NCBI RefSeq assembly: GCF_013122565.1
Contig: NZ_CP053258.1
Length of the DNA: 64,000 nucleotides
Reading direction: 5' to 3' (one strand)
DNA from: Escherichia coli
GTDB lineage: Bacteria; Pseudomonadota; Gammaproteobacteria; Enterobacterales; Enterobacteriaceae
The position numbers were made by a program, and so were the translations under genes. The notes beneath the pieces were generated by a model, which saw nothing but the letters and a program-made list of their open reading frames with translations, was not told where the DNA came from and ran no database searches. Positions 8,067 through 42,105 of this stretch are shown piece by piece (positions within the stretch are counted from its first letter, which is position 1; each line of letters starts with the position of its first letter).

Positions 8067-8152
8067 TAAATAAAAAAACCTGCTGGTGAGGCAGGTTCTT
8101 TTATTTACTACAGTGACGCTAACTTGCTGATTGTGCAACATTTCGTACCAAC
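8067..8152 (-). ncRNA. Putative antitoxin sRNA (OrzO/OrzP-like), divergent from toxin gene
   Basis: Minus-strand -10 TATAAT (plus 8159-8164) and -35 TTGCAA (8182-8187); 5' region (complement of 8133-8152) matches a direct repeat in the toxin 5' UTR (8298-8322); ends at hairpin 8078-8096 with T-run on minus strand. Boundaries approximate. Confidence 0.5.
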
Positions 8153-8674: not shown

Positions 8675-8761
8675 GAAAATAAAAGAACCTGCTGGTGAGG
8701 CAGGTTCTTTTATTTACTACTTTGATGTTAAGTTACTGATAGTGCAACATGGCATCTCAAC
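8675..8761 (-). ncRNA. Putative antitoxin sRNA, copy 2 (OrzO/OrzP-like)
   Basis: Same architecture as copy 1; pairing region is the complement of 8743-8763, cognate UTR site at 8908-8932. Confidence 0.45.
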
Positions 8762-34032: not shown

Positions 34033-36513
34033 ATGTTGAGAATGACCCCACTTGCATCAGCAATCGTAGCGTTATTGCTCGGCATTGAAGCTTATGCAGC
34101 TGAAGAAACCTTTGATACCCATTTTATGATAGGTGGAATGAAAGACCAGCAGGTTGCAAATATTCGTCTTGATGATAATCAACCCTTGCCGGGGCAGTAT
34201 GACATCGATATTTATGTCAATAAACAATGGCGCGGGAAATATGAGATCATTGTTAAAGACAACCCGCAAGAAACATGTTTATCAAGGGAAATTATCAAGC
34301 GGTTAGGCATTAACACCGATAACTTCGCCAGTGGAAAGCAATGTTTAACATTTGAGCAACTTGTTCAGGGCGGGAGTTATACCTGGGATATCGGAGTTTT
34401 TCGTCTCGATTTCAGTGTCCCGCAGGCCTGGGTGGAAGAACTGGAAAGTGGCTATGTTCCACCGGAAAACTGGGAGCGGGGTATTAATGCGTTTTATACC
34501 TCTTATTATGTGAGTCAGTATTACAGTGACTATAAAGCGTCGGGTAATAGTAAGAGTACATATGTACGTTTTAACAGCGGGTTAAATTTACTGGGGTGGC
34601 AACTGCATTCTGATGCCAGTTTCAGTAAAACAAATAACAATCCAGGGGTGTGGAAAAGCAATACCCTGTATCTGGAACGTGGATTTGCCCAACTTCTCGG
34701 CACGCTTCGCGTGGGTGATATGTACACATCAAGCGATATTTTTGATTCTGTTCGCTTCAGCGGTGTGCGGTTGTTTCGTGATATGCAGATGTTGCCTAAC
34801 TCGAAACAAAATTTTACGCCACGGGTGCAGGGGATTGCTCAGAGTAACGCGCTGGTAACTATTGAACAGAATGGTTTTGTGGTTTATCAGAAAGAGGTTC
34901 CTCCTGGCCCGTTTGCGATTACAGATTTGCAGTTGGCCGGTGGTGGAGCAGATCTTGATGTCAGCGTGAAAGAGGCGGACGGCTCGGTTACCACCTATCT
35001 GGTGCCTTATGCAGCGGTGCCAAATATGCTGCAACCTGGCGTATCGAAATATGATTTTGCGGCGGGTCGTAGCCATATTGAAGGGGCAAGCAAACAAAGT
35101 GATTTTATCCAGGTGGGTTATCAGTATGGTTTTAATAATTTATTGACGCTGTATGGTGGCTCGATGGTCGCGAATAATTACTACGCGTTCACTTTGGGGA
35201 CTGGCTGGAATACACGCATTGGTGCCATTTCCGTCGATGCCACGAAGTCGCATAGTAAACAAGACAACGGCGATGTGTTTGACGGGCAAAGTTATCAAAT
35301 TGCTTACAACAAATTTGTGAGCCAAACGTCGACACGTTTTGGTCTGGCGGCCTGGCGTTATTCGTCGCGTGATTACCGGACATTTAATGATCACGTTTGG
35401 GCAAACAATAAAGATAATTATCGCCGTGATGAAAACGATATCTATGACATTGCCGATTATTACCAGAACGATTTTGGCCGTAAAAATAGCTTTTCTGCCA
35501 ATATGAGCCAGTCATTGCCAGAAGGCTGGGGTTCTGTGTCGTTAAGTACGTTATGGCGAGATTACTGGGGACGTAGCGGCAGCAGTAAGGATTATCAGTT
35601 GAGTTATTCCAACAACCTGCGACGGATAAGCTATACCCTCTCGGCAAGCCAGGCTTATGACGAGAATCATCATGAAGAGAAACGATTTAATATTTTTATA
35701 TCGATTCCCTTTGATTGGGGTGATGACGTTACGACGCCTCGTCGGCAAATATATATGTCTAACTCAACGACGTTTGATGATCAAGGTTTTGCCTCAAATA
35801 ATACGGGATTATCAGGAACCGTTGGAAGCCGGGATCAGTTTAACTATGGGGTCAACCTGAGTTATCAGCATCAGGGAAATGAAACGACAGCTGGAGCTAA
35901 TTTGACCTGGAATGCGCCGGTTGCGACAGTGAATGGCAGTTATAGTCAGTCGAGTACTTATCGACAGGCTGGAGCCAGGGTTTCAGGGGGCATTGTCGCC
36001 TGGTCGGGTGGCGTTAATCTGGCGAACCGTCTTTCCGAAACGTTTGCTGTGATGAATGCACCTGGCATTAAAGATGCTTATGTCAATGGGCAAAAATATC
36101 GCACAACAAACCGTAATGGAGTGGTGGTATACGACGGAATGACACCTTATCGGGAAAATCACCTGATGCTGGATGTGTCGCAAAGCGATAGCGAAGCAGA
36201 ATTACGTGGCAACCGGAAAATTGCCGCCCCTTATCGCGGCGCGGTTGTACTGGTTAATTTTGATACCGATCAGCGCAAGCCATGGTTTATAAAAGCGTTA
36301 AGAGCAGATGGGCAACCATTAACGTTTGGTTATGAAGTCAATGATATCCATGGTCATAATATTGGCGTTGTCGGCCAGGGAAGTCAGTTATTTATTCGCA
36401 CCAATGAAGTACCGCCATCGGTTAATGTGGCAATTGATAAGCAACAAGGACTTTCATGCACAATCACCTTCGGTAAAGAGATTGATGAAAGTAGAAATTA
36501 TATCTGTCGGTGA
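34033..36513 (+). CDS. yehB: Outer-membrane fimbrial usher YehB (826 aa)
   Basis: CAGGAG SD; large beta-barrel usher-like protein; follows chaperone gene. Confidence 0.9.
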   Translation: MLRMTPLASAIVALLLGIEAYAAEETFDTHFMIGGMKDQQVANIRLDDNQPLPGQYDIDIYVNKQWRGKYEIIVKDNPQETCLSREIIKRLGINTDNFASGKQCLTFEQLVQGGSYTWDIGVFRLDFSVPQAWVEELESGYVPPENWERGINAFYTSYYVSQYYSDYKASGNSKSTYVRFNSGLNLLGWQLHSDASFSKTNNNPGVWKSNTLYLERGFAQLLGTLRVGDMYTSSDIFDSVRFSGVRLFRDMQMLPNSKQNFTPRVQGIAQSNALVTIEQNGFVVYQKEVPPGPFAITDLQLAGGGADLDVSVKEADGSVTTYLVPYAAVPNMLQPGVSKYDFAAGRSHIEGASKQSDFIQVGYQYGFNNLLTLYGGSMVANNYYAFTLGTGWNTRIGAISVDATKSHSKQDNGDVFDGQSYQIAYNKFVSQTSTRFGLAAWRYSSRDYRTFNDHVWANNKDNYRRDENDIYDIADYYQNDFGRKNSFSANMSQSLPEGWGSVSLSTLWRDYWGRSGSSKDYQLSYSNNLRRISYTLSASQAYDENHHEEKRFNIFISIPFDWGDDVTTPRRQIYMSNSTTFDDQGFASNNTGLSGTVGSRDQFNYGVNLSYQHQGNETTAGANLTWNAPVATVNGSYSQSSTYRQAGARVSGGIVAWSGGVNLANRLSETFAVMNAPGIKDAYVNGQKYRTTNRNGVVVYDGMTPYRENHLMLDVSQSDSEAELRGNRKIAAPYRGAVVLVNFDTDQRKPWFIKALRADGQPLTFGYEVNDIHGHNIGVVGQGSQLFIRTNEVPPSVNVAIDKQQGLSCTITFGKEIDESRNYICR

Positions 36514-36523
36514 GAGGTGGAAT

Positions 36524-37558
36524 ATGATGTTCAGAAATGGAATGTTACTAATATTTATTTTATGGGCTAATTTTACCTGGGCTGGATGTCGTACCACTGC
36601 ATCATTAAATATTACTGATAGTATTAATGTGGGGGAGATTTTAGCGAATGAGGTTTCCTTTAGTAAAAATGTCGTGTTTACTGGGATATCTTGTGATACG
36701 AGCACGGATAAAATAGTTTATAAAAATATCCAAAGTGATTGGGTTGAAGTTGGGCCTTTTGGTAATGGCGAAAAATTAAAGGTTAAAATAGATTCTTTAG
36801 GTAAAAACAGTGAGACGATTGGGAAATCCAGCAATGCGCAGGCAGAATTACCCTATGTGGTTAAAATTGCCAGAGGTACACTTGATTTTACTGGAGAAAG
36901 AAAACCAACCTGGTTTCTTTCAGATACTGTGATTGCAAATATTGGCGGTGAGTCATCTACATCTATCGACTTTTGGTTGGGAATTTGTAAGACATTGAAG
37001 ATTAACTGGTGTGTAAGTTATCTCACCAGTAAACTGGCGGGGGATACATTTACGCTTGGGTTAAGTATTTCCTATTATCCTAAAAATACGACCTGTAAGC
37101 CTGAAAACACAATAATAAAAGTAGATGATATTGCCTTGTCCCAGCTCAGAAGTCAGGGAAAGATTACGGCGAACAGTAAGGAAGGAATAATTTCGTTGAA
37201 ATGTGATAATCTTTTCGGCGACAAAAACCAAGCATCGAGGAATATGGTCGTATATCTTTCCAGCAGTGACTTAGTTACAGGAAGCAATACAATTTTGCGT
37301 GGCAACATAGATAATGGTGTAGGATTTGTGTTGGATCTAAAAGAACCACCAAAAGGAACTGAAGCTGCCATCAAAATTTCTGCTAGCGGCAATCAGGGCG
37401 CGGCGACATCATTATGGAAAACAGATAAACCAGGGGCTTCTTTAAATAGCAATATTATTAATATACCAGTTATGGCCAGTTACTACGTCTACGATACAAA
37501 CAAAGTTAAATCTGGCGCACTGGAGGCAACCGCATTAATCAACGTGAAATACGACTAA
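36524..37558 (+). CDS. yehA: Fimbrial adhesin-like protein YehA (344 aa)
   Basis: ORF 36326..37558 trimmed to MMFRNGMLLIFILWANFTWA start with GAGGTGG SD right after the yehB stop. Confidence 0.8.
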   Translation: MMFRNGMLLIFILWANFTWAGCRTTASLNITDSINVGEILANEVSFSKNVVFTGISCDTSTDKIVYKNIQSDWVEVGPFGNGEKLKVKIDSLGKNSETIGKSSNAQAELPYVVKIARGTLDFTGERKPTWFLSDTVIANIGGESSTSIDFWLGICKTLKINWCVSYLTSKLAGDTFTLGLSISYYPKNTTCKPENTIIKVDDIALSQLRSQGKITANSKEGIISLKCDNLFGDKNQASRNMVVYLSSSDLVTGSNTILRGNIDNGVGFVLDLKEPPKGTEAAIKISASGNQGAATSLWKTDKPGASLNSNIINIPVMASYYVYDTNKVKSGALEATALINVKYD

Positions 37559-37614
37559 TAACAAGCAAGACGAGCAAGTGGCTAATAATAAAAAATAACA
37601 AGGTGTCTGCATTT

Positions 37615-37641
37615 CCCCCTCATGATGAGGGGGCTTTTTTT
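37615..37641 (+). terminator. Intrinsic terminator after yehA
   Basis: ccccctcatgatgaggggg hairpin followed by cttttttt. Confidence 0.55.
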
Positions 37642-37978
37642 AGCGATGATAAAAAATCTCACCGTCGTAGGCTTTAATGATTTTACCGTCGGTGTCGCTG
37701 ATCAACACGTACGCGCCACCCATATAGGTCCAGTGCGTCCCGGCATCAGGCGCGGGCAGGTTACGTAACTGCCACTGCTTAATGTTGTACTCATCGGTGC
37801 GGTACATCTCTGGGACGGTATCGCCTGGTTTGAAATGCTTAAAGTCAGCAATGAAACTGCTTAACTCATACTTGGAAATTCCCGAGGTATTGGTCGAACC
37901 CGCGGTGGCTGGTGCGGCCCAGGCGGCACTGGTAACCAGCAAAAGCGCACCCAGCAACATCTTATTTTTAATGGTCAT
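37640..37978 (-). CDS. rcnB: Periplasmic Ni/Co homeostasis protein RcnB/YohN (112 aa)
   Basis: ORF 37640..38158 trimmed to MTIKNKMLLGALLLVTSAAWA signal peptide with GGAGAG SD. Confidence 0.8.
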   Translation of the reverse strand: MTIKNKMLLGALLLVTSAAWAAPATAGSTNTSGISKYELSSFIADFKHFKPGDTVPEMYRTDEYNIKQWQLRNLPAPDAGTHWTYMGGAYVLISDTDGKIIKAYDGEIFYHR

Positions 37979-38196
37979 AAACTCTCCACTTTGGGGATCT
38001 GTAATATCAGTCGCATATCTTTCCTGCCATACAATATAACTGACAAGCGATATTTTGTTAGTGATCCCATGATTTCGTAAAAAGTGTAAATGAAAGGATG
38101 CCCTAAAAGCATCCTTAGCGAGCAGAGAGTCAGCGGAAATAGCTGATTTAAGAATCATCCTGGGCTGAAGATAACATGCAAGCCTAAAGGATTGAG

Positions 38197-39021
38197 TTAT
38201 CGCATTATGCCCATGAAGCCATGTACGCCCATATACACACCAACTAAGCCAATCAACAGACTGGAAAAATAGGGGGCGCGTTTAGCGAGAGTGTTAAATC
38301 CGCTCCAGCGTTTTGCGACCTGCTGAACGCTGATTGCTGCGCCAACGCCTACGGTGACAAGCGTTAACGCCAGGCCAATGCTAAAACTTACGACCAGTGT
38401 TGCGCCCAGTGTCAGGGCTTTCAACTGAATGCAAATCAACAGCACGGTAATTGCTGCCGGGCAGGGGATAAGGCCACCGGTTAAGCCAAATAACAAAATT
38501 TGCCAGTTGGTGACCTCTCTACCATCAAAGCGTCGTTTAATGTCATTAGCATGGGCTCGTGCATGAGCATCCTGATACTCGCCATGTTCGTGATGGTGAT
38601 GATGCCCATGGTCGTGGTGATCTTCGTGATCGTGGTGATGATGTTCATGATCATGCTCGTGCATATTCTCCAGCCAGTTGCGTTCGCCGCGCCAGGTACG
38701 CCAGAACATCCAGAACGCGGTGCCAATAATGATCACTGCAGAAATCAACTGGAGCCACGGTTCTGCAGATTGAGCAGTAAAGCGTTTGCTGATCACCATC
38801 CCGCCAAAGGCAATCAACCAGACCACCGCGGTATGCGAAATGGTTGCTGCCAGTCCGAGCATCACCGCCTGTTTAATGGTGCCTTTGATGGCGATGATAA
38901 ACGCCGCCATCATCGTTTTTGAGTGCCCTGGTTCCAGGCCATGAAGCGCACCAAGTAAGATGGCGCTGGGGATGAAGAACCAGGCGTTTCCTTGCTGAAG
39001 AAGAGTTGTAAATTCGGTCAT
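38197..39021 (-). CDS. rcnA: Nickel/cobalt efflux protein RcnA
   Basis: Membrane protein with very His-rich loop (HEHDHEHHHHDHEDHHDHGHHHHHEH). Confidence 0.9.
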   Translation of the reverse strand: MTEFTTLLQQGNAWFFIPSAILLGALHGLEPGHSKTMMAAFIIAIKGTIKQAVMLGLAATISHTAVVWLIAFGGMVISKRFTAQSAEPWLQLISAVIIIGTAFWMFWRTWRGERNWLENMHEHDHEHHHHDHEDHHDHGHHHHHEHGEYQDAHARAHANDIKRRFDGREVTNWQILLFGLTGGLIPCPAAITVLLICIQLKALTLGATLVVSFSIGLALTLVTVGVGAAISVQQVAKRWSGFNTLAKRAPYFSSLLIGLVGVYMGVHGFMGIMR

Positions 39022-39058
39022 GATAATAATTCTTAGTATTAATTCGGCAATCTGATTC

Positions 39059-39093
39059 TACTCCCCCCCAGTACCTGATACTACCCCCCAGTA
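39059..39093. promoter_or_regulatory. Two RcnR operator sites in rcnA-rcnR divergent intergenic region
   Basis: TACT-C7-AGTA at 39059-39073 and TACT-A-C6-AGTA at 39079-39093, i.e. the TACT-G6-N-AGTA motif on the opposite strand. Confidence 0.7.
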
Positions 39094-39141
39094 GATTAAT
39101 AGTGCTATGATTTTTCATGTTCTTGTTAACCAGGTGTTGCC

Positions 39142-39414
39142 ATGTCTCATACAATCCGTGATAAACAGAAACTGAAAGCGCGTGCCAGTAAGATTCAGGG
39201 CCAGGTCGTGGCGCTCAAGAAAATGCTCGACGAACCGCATGAATGCGCTGCAGTTTTACAACAGATTGCTGCTATCCGTGGCGCGGTAAACGGTCTGATG
39301 CGGGAAGTGATTAAAGGTCATCTGACGGAACACATCGTTCACCAGGGGGATGAGCTAAAACGTGAAGAAGATCTGGATGTCGTTCTGAAGGTGCTGGATT
39401 CTTATATCAAATAA
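39142..39414 (+). CDS. rcnR: Ni/Co-responsive repressor RcnR (90 aa)
   Basis: CsoR/RcnR-family small helical protein, divergent from rcnA. Confidence 0.9.
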
Positions 39415-39494
39415 TTTATTAACGCGATTGTAAAACTGCCGTTTTTCCTCGTTTACAACGCGTGCGCTGGACATTACCATCCTCCTCTGCGATT

Positions 39495-39605
39495 TATCAT
39501 CGCAACCAAACGACTCGGGGTGCCCTTCTGCGTGAAGGCTGAGAAATACCCGTATCACCTGATCTGGATAATGCCAGCGTAGGGAAGTCACGGACCACCA
39601 GGTCA
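39495..39605 (+). promoter_or_regulatory. TPP (thiamine pyrophosphate) riboswitch in thiM leader
   Basis: ggggtgcccttctgcgtgaaggctgagaaatacccgtatcacctgatctggataatgccagcgtagggaa matches the classic thiM thi-box aptamer, immediately upstream of thiM SD. Confidence 0.8.
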
Positions 39606-39636
39606 TTGCTTCTTCACGTTATGGCAGGAGCAAACT

Positions 39637-40425
39637 ATGCAAGTCGACCTGCTGAGTTCCGCGCAATCTGCGCACACGTTACACCTTTTTCACCAACATT
39701 CCCCTCTTGTGCACTGCATGACCAACGATGTGGTGCAAACCTTTACTGCCAATACCTTGCTGGCGCTCGGTGCATCGCCAGCGATGGTTATCGAAACCGA
39801 AGAGGCCAGTCAGTTTGCGGCTATTGCTAGTGCCTTGCTGATTAACGTTGGCACGCTGACGCAGCCACGCGCACAGTCGATGTGTGCCGCCGTTGAGCAA
39901 GCAAAAAGCTCTCAAACACCCTGGACGCTTGATCCAGTAGCGGTGGGTGCACTCGATTATCGCCGCCGTTTTTGTCTGGAACTTCTGTCTCATAAGCCAA
40001 CCGCCATACGTGGTAATGCTTCGGAAATCATGGCATTAGCTGGCATTGCTAATGGCGGACGGGGAGTGGATACCACTGACGCCGCAGCTAACGCGATACC
40101 CGCTGCACAAACACTGGCACGGGAAACTGGCGCAATCGTCGTGGTCACTGGCGAGATGGATTATGTTACCGATGGACATCGTATCATTGGTATTCACGGT
40201 GGCGATCCGTTAATGACCAAAGTGGTAGGAACTGGCTGTGCATTATCGGCGGTTGTCGCTGCCTGCTGTGCGTTACCAGGCGATACGCTGGAAAATGTCG
40301 CATCTGCCTGTCACTGGATGAAACAAGCCGGAGAACGCGCAGTCGTCAGAAGCGAGGGGCCAGGCAGTTTTGTTCCACATTTCCTTGATGCGCTCTGGCA
40401 ATTGACGCAGGAGGTGCAGGCATGA
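39637..40425 (+). CDS. thiM: Hydroxyethylthiazole kinase
   Basis: 262-aa ORF after TPP riboswitch; GGCAGGAG SD. Confidence 0.95.
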
Positions 40426-41222
40426 AACGAATTAACGCTCTGACGATTGCCGGTACTGATCCGAGTGGTGGTGCGGGGATTCAGGCCGATCTTAAAACCT
40501 TCTCGGCACTTGGCGCTTATGGTTGCTCAGTTATTACTGCACTGGTGGCGCAAAATACCCGTGGCGTACAGTCGGTGTATCGCATTGAGCCTGATTTTGT
40601 CGCCGCCCAGCTCGATTCGGTGTTCAGCGATGTGCGAATCGACACCACTAAAATCGGTATGTTGGCGGAAACCGATATTGTTGAAGCGGTGGCAGAACGG
40701 TTGCAACGTTATCAGATCCAAAACGTGGTACTCGACACCGTTATGCTGGCAAAAAGCGGCGACCCGCTGCTTTCACCTTCGGCGGTTGCTACGCTGCGCA
40801 GTCGATTATTGCCACAGGTTTCATTAATAACGCCAAACTTGCCCGAAGCTGCTGCCTTGCTCGACGCGCCACACGCGCGCAACGAACAGGAAATGCTGGA
40901 ACAAGGGCGATCGCTGTTGGCGATGGGCTGTGGCGCAGTGCTAATGAAAGGTGGTCATCTGGATGATGAACAAAGCCCGGACTGGCTGTTTACTCGTGAG
41001 GGAGAACAACGATTTACTGCACCGCGCATTATGACCAAAAACACCCACGGCACTGGTTGTACGCTCTCTGCGGCGTTGGCTGCACTACGCCCGCGCCATA
41101 CAAACTGGGCTGACACCGTACAGGAGGCAAAAAGCTGGCTTTCATCGGCGTTAGCCCAGGCCGACACGCTGGAAGTTGGTCACGGTATTGGTCCGGTTCA
41201 CCACTTCCACGCCTGGTGGTGA
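40422..41222 (+). CDS. thiD: Hydroxymethylpyrimidine/phosphomethylpyrimidine kinase
   Basis: 266-aa ORF, ATGA-overlapped with thiM stop. Confidence 0.95.
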
Positions 41223-41277
41223 GCACCGTACTATAGCTGCTTTGGTTATTGTCAGTCTTTGGCGCTGACATTCAGGG

Positions 41278-42105
41278 ATGAAACCAATGCAGCTAAGAAT
41301 TACCAGTCGAAAAAAACTCACCGCTCTATTATGCGCTCTTGGGCTAATTTCCATCGTTGCAATTTATCCGCGTCAGACGGTGAATTTTTTCTATTCGACA
41401 GCAGTTCAGATTACAGACTACATCCACTTCTACGGTTATCGCCCGGTTAAATCTTTCGCTATTCGTATTCCTGCCAGTTACACCATTCACGGAATAGATG
41501 TTTCGCGCTGGCAGGAGCGGATCGACTGGCAGCGGGTGGCAAAAATGCGCGATAACGGTATCCGCTTACAATTTACCTTTATCAAGGCGACGGAAGGCGA
41601 AAAGCTGGTGGACCCCTATTTTTCGCGTAACTGGCAACTAAGCCGCGAAAATGGCCTGCTGCGCGGGGCGTATCATTATTTCTCCCCGTCGGTATCCGCT
41701 TCAGTTCAGGCGCGATTATTTCTGCAAACGGTGGATTTCTCACAAGGCGATTTACCTGCCGTGCTGGATGTAGAAGAACGGGGAAAATTATCGGCAAAAG
41801 AATTACGCAAGCGGGTAAGTCAGTGGCTAAAAATGGTCGAAAAAAGTACGGGAAAAAAGCCGATTATTTACTCAGGAGCCGTTTTTTATCACACCAATCT
41901 GGCGGGCTATTTCAATGAATATCCGTGGTGGGTGGCTCACTACTATCAACGTCGTCCGGACAATGACGGCATGGCCTGGCGCTTCTGGCAGCATTCCGAC
42001 CGTGGACAGGTAGATGGCATCAATGGTCCGGTGGATTTTAATGTATTTAATGGCACGGTGGAGGAGTTGCAGACATTCGTTGATGGGATTAAAGAAACGC
42101 CTTAA
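41278..42105 (+). CDS. yegX: Glycoside hydrolase family 25 (lysozyme-like) protein YegX
   Basis: Signal/TM N-terminus then GH25-like sequence; alternative start at 41287. Confidence 0.75.
   Translation: MKPMQLRITSRKKLTALLCALGLISIVAIYPRQTVNFFYSTAVQITDYIHFYGYRPVKSFAIRIPASYTIHGIDVSRWQERIDWQRVAKMRDNGIRLQFTFIKATEGEKLVDPYFSRNWQLSRENGLLRGAYHYFSPSVSASVQARLFLQTVDFSQGDLPAVLDVEERGKLSAKELRKRVSQWLKMVEKSTGKKPIIYSGAVFYHTNLAGYFNEYPWWVAHYYQRRPDNDGMAWRFWQHSDRGQVDGINGPVDFNVFNGTVEELQTFVDGIKETP

Follow-up and report, generated by a model that had tools for sequence, protein, structure and literature searches.

The rcnA-rcnR locus and its intergenic region

The 64-kb stretch of E. coli DNA that we analysed (the window) carries the rcnB, rcnA and rcnR genes of a nickel/cobalt efflux system, with rcnA and rcnR divergently oriented (Table 1). 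The product of rcnA matched the NCBIfam model for the nickel/cobalt efflux transporter (NF007454, 560 bits against a cut-off of 195). This RcnA is full length and carries four substitutions compared to K-12, at positions 100, 122, 125 and 134. The product of rcnR matched the RcnR equivalog model (NF011613, 197 bits against a cut-off of 138) and is 100% identical to K-12 RcnR. The RcnR translation contains His3, Cys35, His60 and His64, the residues of the H-C-H-H metal-ligand motif (PMC11672702). RcnB is also 100% identical to the K-12 protein, which is annotated as rcnB in K-12 DH10B. The open reading frame called for rcnB was longer (172 aa, 37640-38158, minus strand), however the 60 additional codons at its upstream end are an ORF-calling artefact. 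We placed the start at the internal ATG at 37978 because the resulting 112-aa product is identical to that of K-12.

Table 1. Positions of the genes, operator sites and candidate promoter elements of the rcn locus in the window.
Feature	Position	Strand	Sequence or size	Remarks
rcnB	37640-37978	-	112 aa	periplasmic accessory protein of the efflux system; second gene of rcnAB
rcnA	38197-39021	-	274 aa	Ni/Co efflux transporter; the regulated gene
rcnA-rcnR divergent intergenic region (bidirectional Prcn)	39022-39141		120 bp	limits from ORF coordinates
candidate PrcnA -10	39055-39060	-	TAGAAT	putative; shares the final 2 bases of site 1
RcnR site 1 (rcnA-proximal)	39059-39073	-	TACTGGGGGGGAGTA on the minus strand; TACTCCCCCCCAGTA on the plus strand	G6 with N = G, hence G7
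spacer between the RcnR sites	39074-39078		CCTGA on the plus strand; TCAGG on the minus strand	5 bp
candidate PrcnA -35	39078-39083	-	TAGTAT	weak candidate, placed by spacing alone; 17 nt upstream of TAGAAT; in and at the edge of site 2
RcnR site 2 (rcnR-proximal)	39079-39093	-	TACTGGGGGGTAGTA on the minus strand; TACTACCCCCCAGTA on the plus strand	N = T
candidate PrcnR extended -10	39103-39111	+	TGCTATGAT	putative; starts 9 nt past site 2
rcnR	39142-39414	+	90 aa	Ni(II)/Co(II)-responsive CsoR/RcnR-family repressor

Several other features were observed in the window. The best match to positions 36000-42000 among 5,426 complete E. coli genomes was 98.2% over 6 kb. Since the alignment to K-12 ends at 37475, the fimbrial adhesin-like gene upstream of rcnB (36326-37558, at the position of yehA) is a divergent allele. 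On the plus strand, positions 39506-39602 form a TPP riboswitch (Rfam RF00059, 71 bits), and the genes downstream of it are annotated in K-12 as thiM (39637-40425) and thiD (40422-41222). The minus strand encodes two antitoxin RNAs of the OrzO-P family (Rfam RF02083; 89 and 90 bits) at 8072-8145 and 8681-8754, about 600 bp apart, which suggests tandem toxin-antitoxin loci regulated by antisense RNA.

We found that the window contains two exact matches to TACT-G6-N-AGTA, both read on the minus strand and both located between rcnA and rcnR. The G tracts lie on the minus strand, which is the coding strand of rcnA, and on the plus strand they read as C7 in site 1 and C6 in site 2. The interval from TACT to AGTA is 7 bp in each site, and the centres of the sites are 20 bp apart, or approximately two helix turns. 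The initial annotation had proposed exactly these paired sites, and both their sequences and their positions were correct. It described the sites as 20 bp apart, which holds for the start-to-start (equally the centre-to-centre) distance but not for the gap between them, which is 5 bp. The start of the intergenic region, which it gave as 39040, is set at 39022 by the ORF coordinates. We found no further credible RcnR-type site in the 64-kb window when up to three mismatches were allowed; two matches with three mismatches elsewhere were unconvincing, with 2.8 expected by chance.

Identity with the characterised E. coli operator

The RcnR binding site of E. coli has been used as a defined part named rcnO ("rcnR binding site"), which is listed as the 35-bp sequence TACTGGGGGGTAGTATCAGGTACTGGGGGGGAGTA in the supplementary parts table of PMC7105576. 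We found that the reverse complement of positions 39059-39093 of the window is exactly rcnO. In the published work rcnO was fused to Pveg to build a hybrid promoter for control by RcnR and cobalt, and according to the abstract Co(II) was the specific trigger of GFP expression from it (PMC7105576). For the tandem TACT-G6-N-AGTA operator itself, PMC3902906, PMC7055735, PMC5146963, PMC7105576 and PMC4124493 cite Iwig & Chivers 2009 and Blaha et al. 2011. The earlier statement that the sites fit the known RcnR recognition motif is supported, since the 35-bp block is the published rcnO.

[quoted passage not shown] Each site is reported to bind one RcnR tetramer, with both tetramers on the same helix face (PMC5146963). 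The 20-bp phasing of the sites would allow such same-face binding here. The tracts of C7 and C6 and the 7-bp TACT/AGTA spacing agree with the definition of a type-1 operator of the CsoR/RcnR family (PMC3902906). The type-2 operators of CsoR proteins, for example that of Streptomyces lividans CsoR, are similar in that they are G-tract pseudopalindromes with a GTA dyad as high-affinity anchor and A-form character; however they contain two short interrupted G/C tracts with approximately 11 bp between the repeats, bind two tetramers per site and respond to Cu(I) as inducer (PMC3902906). The sequence-level features of an E. coli RcnR operator are all found at the locus, namely the motif, its tandem arrangement in a divergent gap, the identity with rcnO and the cognate RcnR. 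We found no sequence feature at the locus that contradicts its reading as an RcnR operator.

Prcn has been described as bidirectional, with a pair of RcnR sites flanked by the transcription start sites of the two units; RcnR represses rcnAB as well as its own gene from these sites, and its control of the two units responds to Ni(II)/Co(II) (PMC4124493). Taken together with the rcnO identity, we consider it very likely (probability of about 0.95) that positions 39059-39093 are the tandem type-1 RcnR operator common to the two divergent promoters, that of rcnAB (leftward) and that of rcnR (rightward). The element is already known, as it is the characterised E. coli RcnR operator letter for letter.

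Compared to K-12, the operator is the same 35 bp, in the same place between rcnA and rcnR, alongside the same repressor protein. The initial annotation called the operator intact, and its identity with K-12 throughout positions 39059-39093 upholds this. When a 181-bp stretch was aligned with the K-12 DH10B genome and an O157:H7 genome, the sole difference was at position 39119, which is G here and in O157:H7 and A in K-12. Thus the operator shows no difference from the K-12 locus, and what differs is position 39119 and the four substitutions in RcnA.

These differences raise the question of whether the operator could be intact while control by Ni/Co is altered elsewhere, either through 39119 or through RcnA. 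Position 39119 is 8 nt past the candidate extended -10 of PrcnR, near the expected start of the rcnR transcript, and RcnA is changed at four positions. However, 39119 belongs neither to the two sites, lying 26 bp rightward of site 2, nor to the -10 element, and G is a common natural allele at this position, being present also in O157:H7 PV15-279 and in strain ECL27829. Furthermore, RcnR is identical to that of K-12 and RcnA is full length. Altered control therefore appears very unlikely. From the intact parts it is a reasonable inference that Ni/Co-responsive control of rcnA would be functional in this strain, as had been suggested in the initial annotation.

Variation in E. coli and conservation in other bacteria

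The surrounding 301 bp were found in 5,363 of 5,426 complete E. coli genomes. A 63-mer that spans the operator was matched in 5,207 complete E. coli genomes, of which 4,399 carry it unchanged. In the variants that we sampled, point changes were located at 39054 in the left flank or at 39077 in the spacer, and changes within the sites were changes in homopolymer length, with C6, C8 or C9 at site 1 and C5 at site 2. By exact matching with the remainder of the 63-mer identical, C6 was counted in 118 and C8 in 98 complete E. coli genomes, counts that may reflect real alleles or homopolymer sequencing errors. Strain RM8082 combined C9 in site 1 with C5 in site 2, and in strain 097H6 a 5-bp deletion takes out the outer TACT of site 1. 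One reading of the length variants is that the rcnA-proximal G7 tract is prone to slippage and that length alleles alter the spacing of the half-sites and thereby reset or abolish repression by RcnR. We regard this as improbable, although if the alleles are real they would constitute heritable natural variation in nickel/cobalt efflux. The copy in the window is the canonical tract allele, thus the question of tract length concerns the element as a class.

A different change was observed in E. coli ET979 (NZ_CP100876.1), in which an IS1A at 1583-2280 of a 3-kb stretch abuts the start of rcnA, at the place of the operator and rcnR. The annotated RcnA of ET979 is slightly longer, and these 3 kb contain no annotated rcnR. 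In this strain the repressor side of the circuit seems to have been lost naturally.

Beyond E. coli, we searched one genome per species (100,044 species) for TACTGGGGGGNAGTA-N(3-7)-TACT-N7-AGTA, for which less than one chance match was estimated. The scan returned 93 loci, nearly all from Enterobacterales; the remaining loci were from Vibrio, Photobacterium, Shewanella, Neptunicella, Thalassolituus and Chitinilyticum. Using tblastn we found an RcnR homolog at 90 of these loci, an RcnA homolog at 84 and at least one of the two at all 93, and in several cases of a missing homolog the motif was at the edge of the retrieved DNA. Because the scan begins from the motif, these counts show its specificity (from motif to rcnR/rcnA) and not the fraction of rcnR loci that carry it. 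The orientation of the motif was constant. In nearly all loci it was 32-43 bp from the aligned RcnA start, and its distance from rcnR was 21-99 bp.

We then footprinted the region with the 67 unique loci that have a 5-bp spacer, treating positions fixed by the search as uninformative. The seven inner bases of the rcnA-proximal site, which the search left free, carried 1.4-2.0 bits; they read G7 in 74 of 91 loci and were rich in G in the others. The free N of the rcnR-proximal site was T in all 93 loci. The first minus-strand base of the spacer (T, 39078) was invariant in the 5-bp-spacer class, while the other four spacer positions held only 0.4-1.1 bits, with 44 distinct spacers among orthologous loci. 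Since the T at N and the T that follows are both fixed, the conserved core is longer than the published 15-mer consensus. Most flanking columns were at approximately 0.0-0.5 bits, with peaks at the candidate -10 elements.

On the rcnA side, 89 of 90 unique loci have a TAnnnT hexamer directly after the rcnA-proximal site, sharing the last two bases of its AGTA. In this hexamer the A and T columns reached 1.2-1.9 bits, compared to approximately 0.1-0.5 bits in other flanking columns. On the rcnR side, TGnTAnnnT was found in 79 of the 90 unique loci, at the same 9-nt distance as here in 47 of them, and its columns were likewise raised in the footprint. We infer that these conserved flanking elements are the -10 of PrcnA and the extended -10 of PrcnR. 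With a spacer of 17 nt, the -35 of PrcnA would be TAGTAT, whose terminal T is the invariant base at 39078, and that of PrcnR would lie within the site 2 C tract. The operator would then take up the DNA from one -10 element to the other, which matches the published placement of the RcnR sites between the start sites (PMC4124493). The proposed hexamers were absent from the output of a consensus promoter scan of the region. That scan gave three weak matches, two of which would start transcription inside the coding sequence of rcnA or rcnR and the third of which is downstream of rcnR. As working promoters we preferred the conserved hexamers from phylogenetic footprinting to these matches.

Mobile copies of the rcnR-rcnA pair are widespread on large enterobacterial plasmids. 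A plasmid protein search detected a 92% identical RcnR on many of these plasmids, with 411 records in the 90-95% identity band, and RcnR copies of 62-63% identity on Ralstonia megaplasmids. The IncHI2 example from Raoultella, p23141-mcr (NZ_MF788071.1), carries TACTCCCCCCCAGTA-AAATA-TACTACCCCCCAGTA within 1679-1800 between divergent rcnA and rcnR. Both 15-bp sites are identical to those in the window, the spacer is again 5 bp and TAGAAT follows the rcnR-side site. In contrast, the spacer sequence is AAATA rather than CCTGA, the flanks have diverged, RcnR is 92% identical and the rcnA gene is longer (1,116 nt). The Ralstonia locus (solanacearum megaplasmid) has a single TACTGCCCCCCAGTA (TACT-N-C6-AGTA) in the same intergenic position, at approximately 1738-1752 of the retrieved stretch, and not a tandem.

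A class of loci with a 6-bp spacer was observed in Enterobacter, Klebsiella, Kluyvera, Lelliottia and Trabulsiella. The RcnR proteins of this class are only about 60-64% identical, approximately 35 bp on the rcnR side are well conserved, and TGnTAnnnT is 26-27 nt from the site compared to 9 nt. These loci may represent a paralogous rcnR/rcnA system whose promoters are laid out differently.

The conservation data also bear on whether the sites might be bound mainly by a regulator other than RcnR, either its paralog FrmR or Fur. FrmR is the closest paralog, the FrmR model matches the RcnR sequence with 76 bits, and tandem type-1 sites are also used by FrmR (PMC5146963). The E. coli FrmR operator at Pfrm shares with the rcn sites the tandem G/C tracts, the 4-bp AT-rich inverted repeats and the CsoR/RcnR-family tetramer. 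However its sites are ATAC-(9 bp GC-rich)-GTAT, so that both the half-site and the tract length differ, and it serves a single promoter that responds to formaldehyde and not to Ni/Co (PMC5146963). The sites in the window have TACT/AGTA at a 7-bp interval, and neither has ATAC/GTAT around a 9-bp GC-rich tract. The title of Koch et al. 2007 does tie RcnRA to iron homeostasis. The region beside the rcnA start (39022-39045) was nevertheless poorly conserved, at 0.0-0.8 bits in the main spacer class, and gives no support for a second conserved operator. This AT-rich region has what we take to be a loose resemblance to a Fur box, but we rejected it as a second operator given its poor conservation in the main orthologous class; our search found no direct support for it in the literature. 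Furthermore, the motif accompanies a homolog of RcnR, RcnA or both at every one of the 93 loci, and it was as the RcnR operator that rcnO was chosen for the cobalt-responsive circuit (PMC7105576). Binding mainly by another regulator is thus highly improbable, and we retain RcnR as the protein that binds these sites.

Finally, we considered the frequency of the motif. The bare TACT-N7-AGTA palindrome is not significant alone, as 0.43 copies are expected per window and two or more occurred in 8 of 100 shuffles. When the G tract was included, the expectation fell to 0.00 in 100 dinucleotide-preserving shuffles, compared to the two copies observed, and to 4.6e-4 per 64 kb on both strands when calculated from base composition. 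The signal therefore comes from the G tracts and from the placement of the sites, which are adjacent and lie at this genomic position, and not from the bare palindrome. That the sites are chance palindromes with no regulatory role is vanishingly unlikely, since two adjacent copies lie exactly within the rcnA/rcnR gap, are identical to a characterised operator and are kept across genera while the spacer and flanks drift.

Model for repression and its meaning for the strain

The binding, stoichiometry and metal response of RcnR are known for the identical K-12 sequence (PMC3902906, PMC5146963, PMC7105576, PMC4124493), and we extend the mechanism to this strain because both the operator and the repressor are identical to those of K-12. 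In the absence of metal, one RcnR tetramer would occupy each TACT-G6-N-AGTA site, and non-specific contacts with flanking DNA may add wrapping. Bound RcnR would cover the edge of the PrcnA -10, the PrcnA spacer and -35, and the region of the PrcnR -35. Since the operator overlaps the spacer and -35 of both promoters, RNA polymerase would be shut out leftward as well as rightward. Once RcnR has bound Ni(II) or Co(II), its affinity for DNA would fall, leading to derepression of rcnAB for efflux and of rcnR for autoregulation. Judged from the sequence, apo-RcnR most likely represses both genes in this strain and is released by nickel or cobalt.

The comparative data refine the operator slightly in several respects, namely the T at N in the rcnR-proximal site, the usual G7 of the rcnA-proximal site, the fixed base that follows, and the -10-like elements that bracket the two sites. 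These refinements sharpen the model of the operator without changing it. For this window the finding is of value only for annotation: it places in the strain an rcnR-rcnAB nickel/cobalt efflux circuit whose operator, repressor and transporter are unaltered, and the strain would be expected to respond to Ni/Co as K-12 does.
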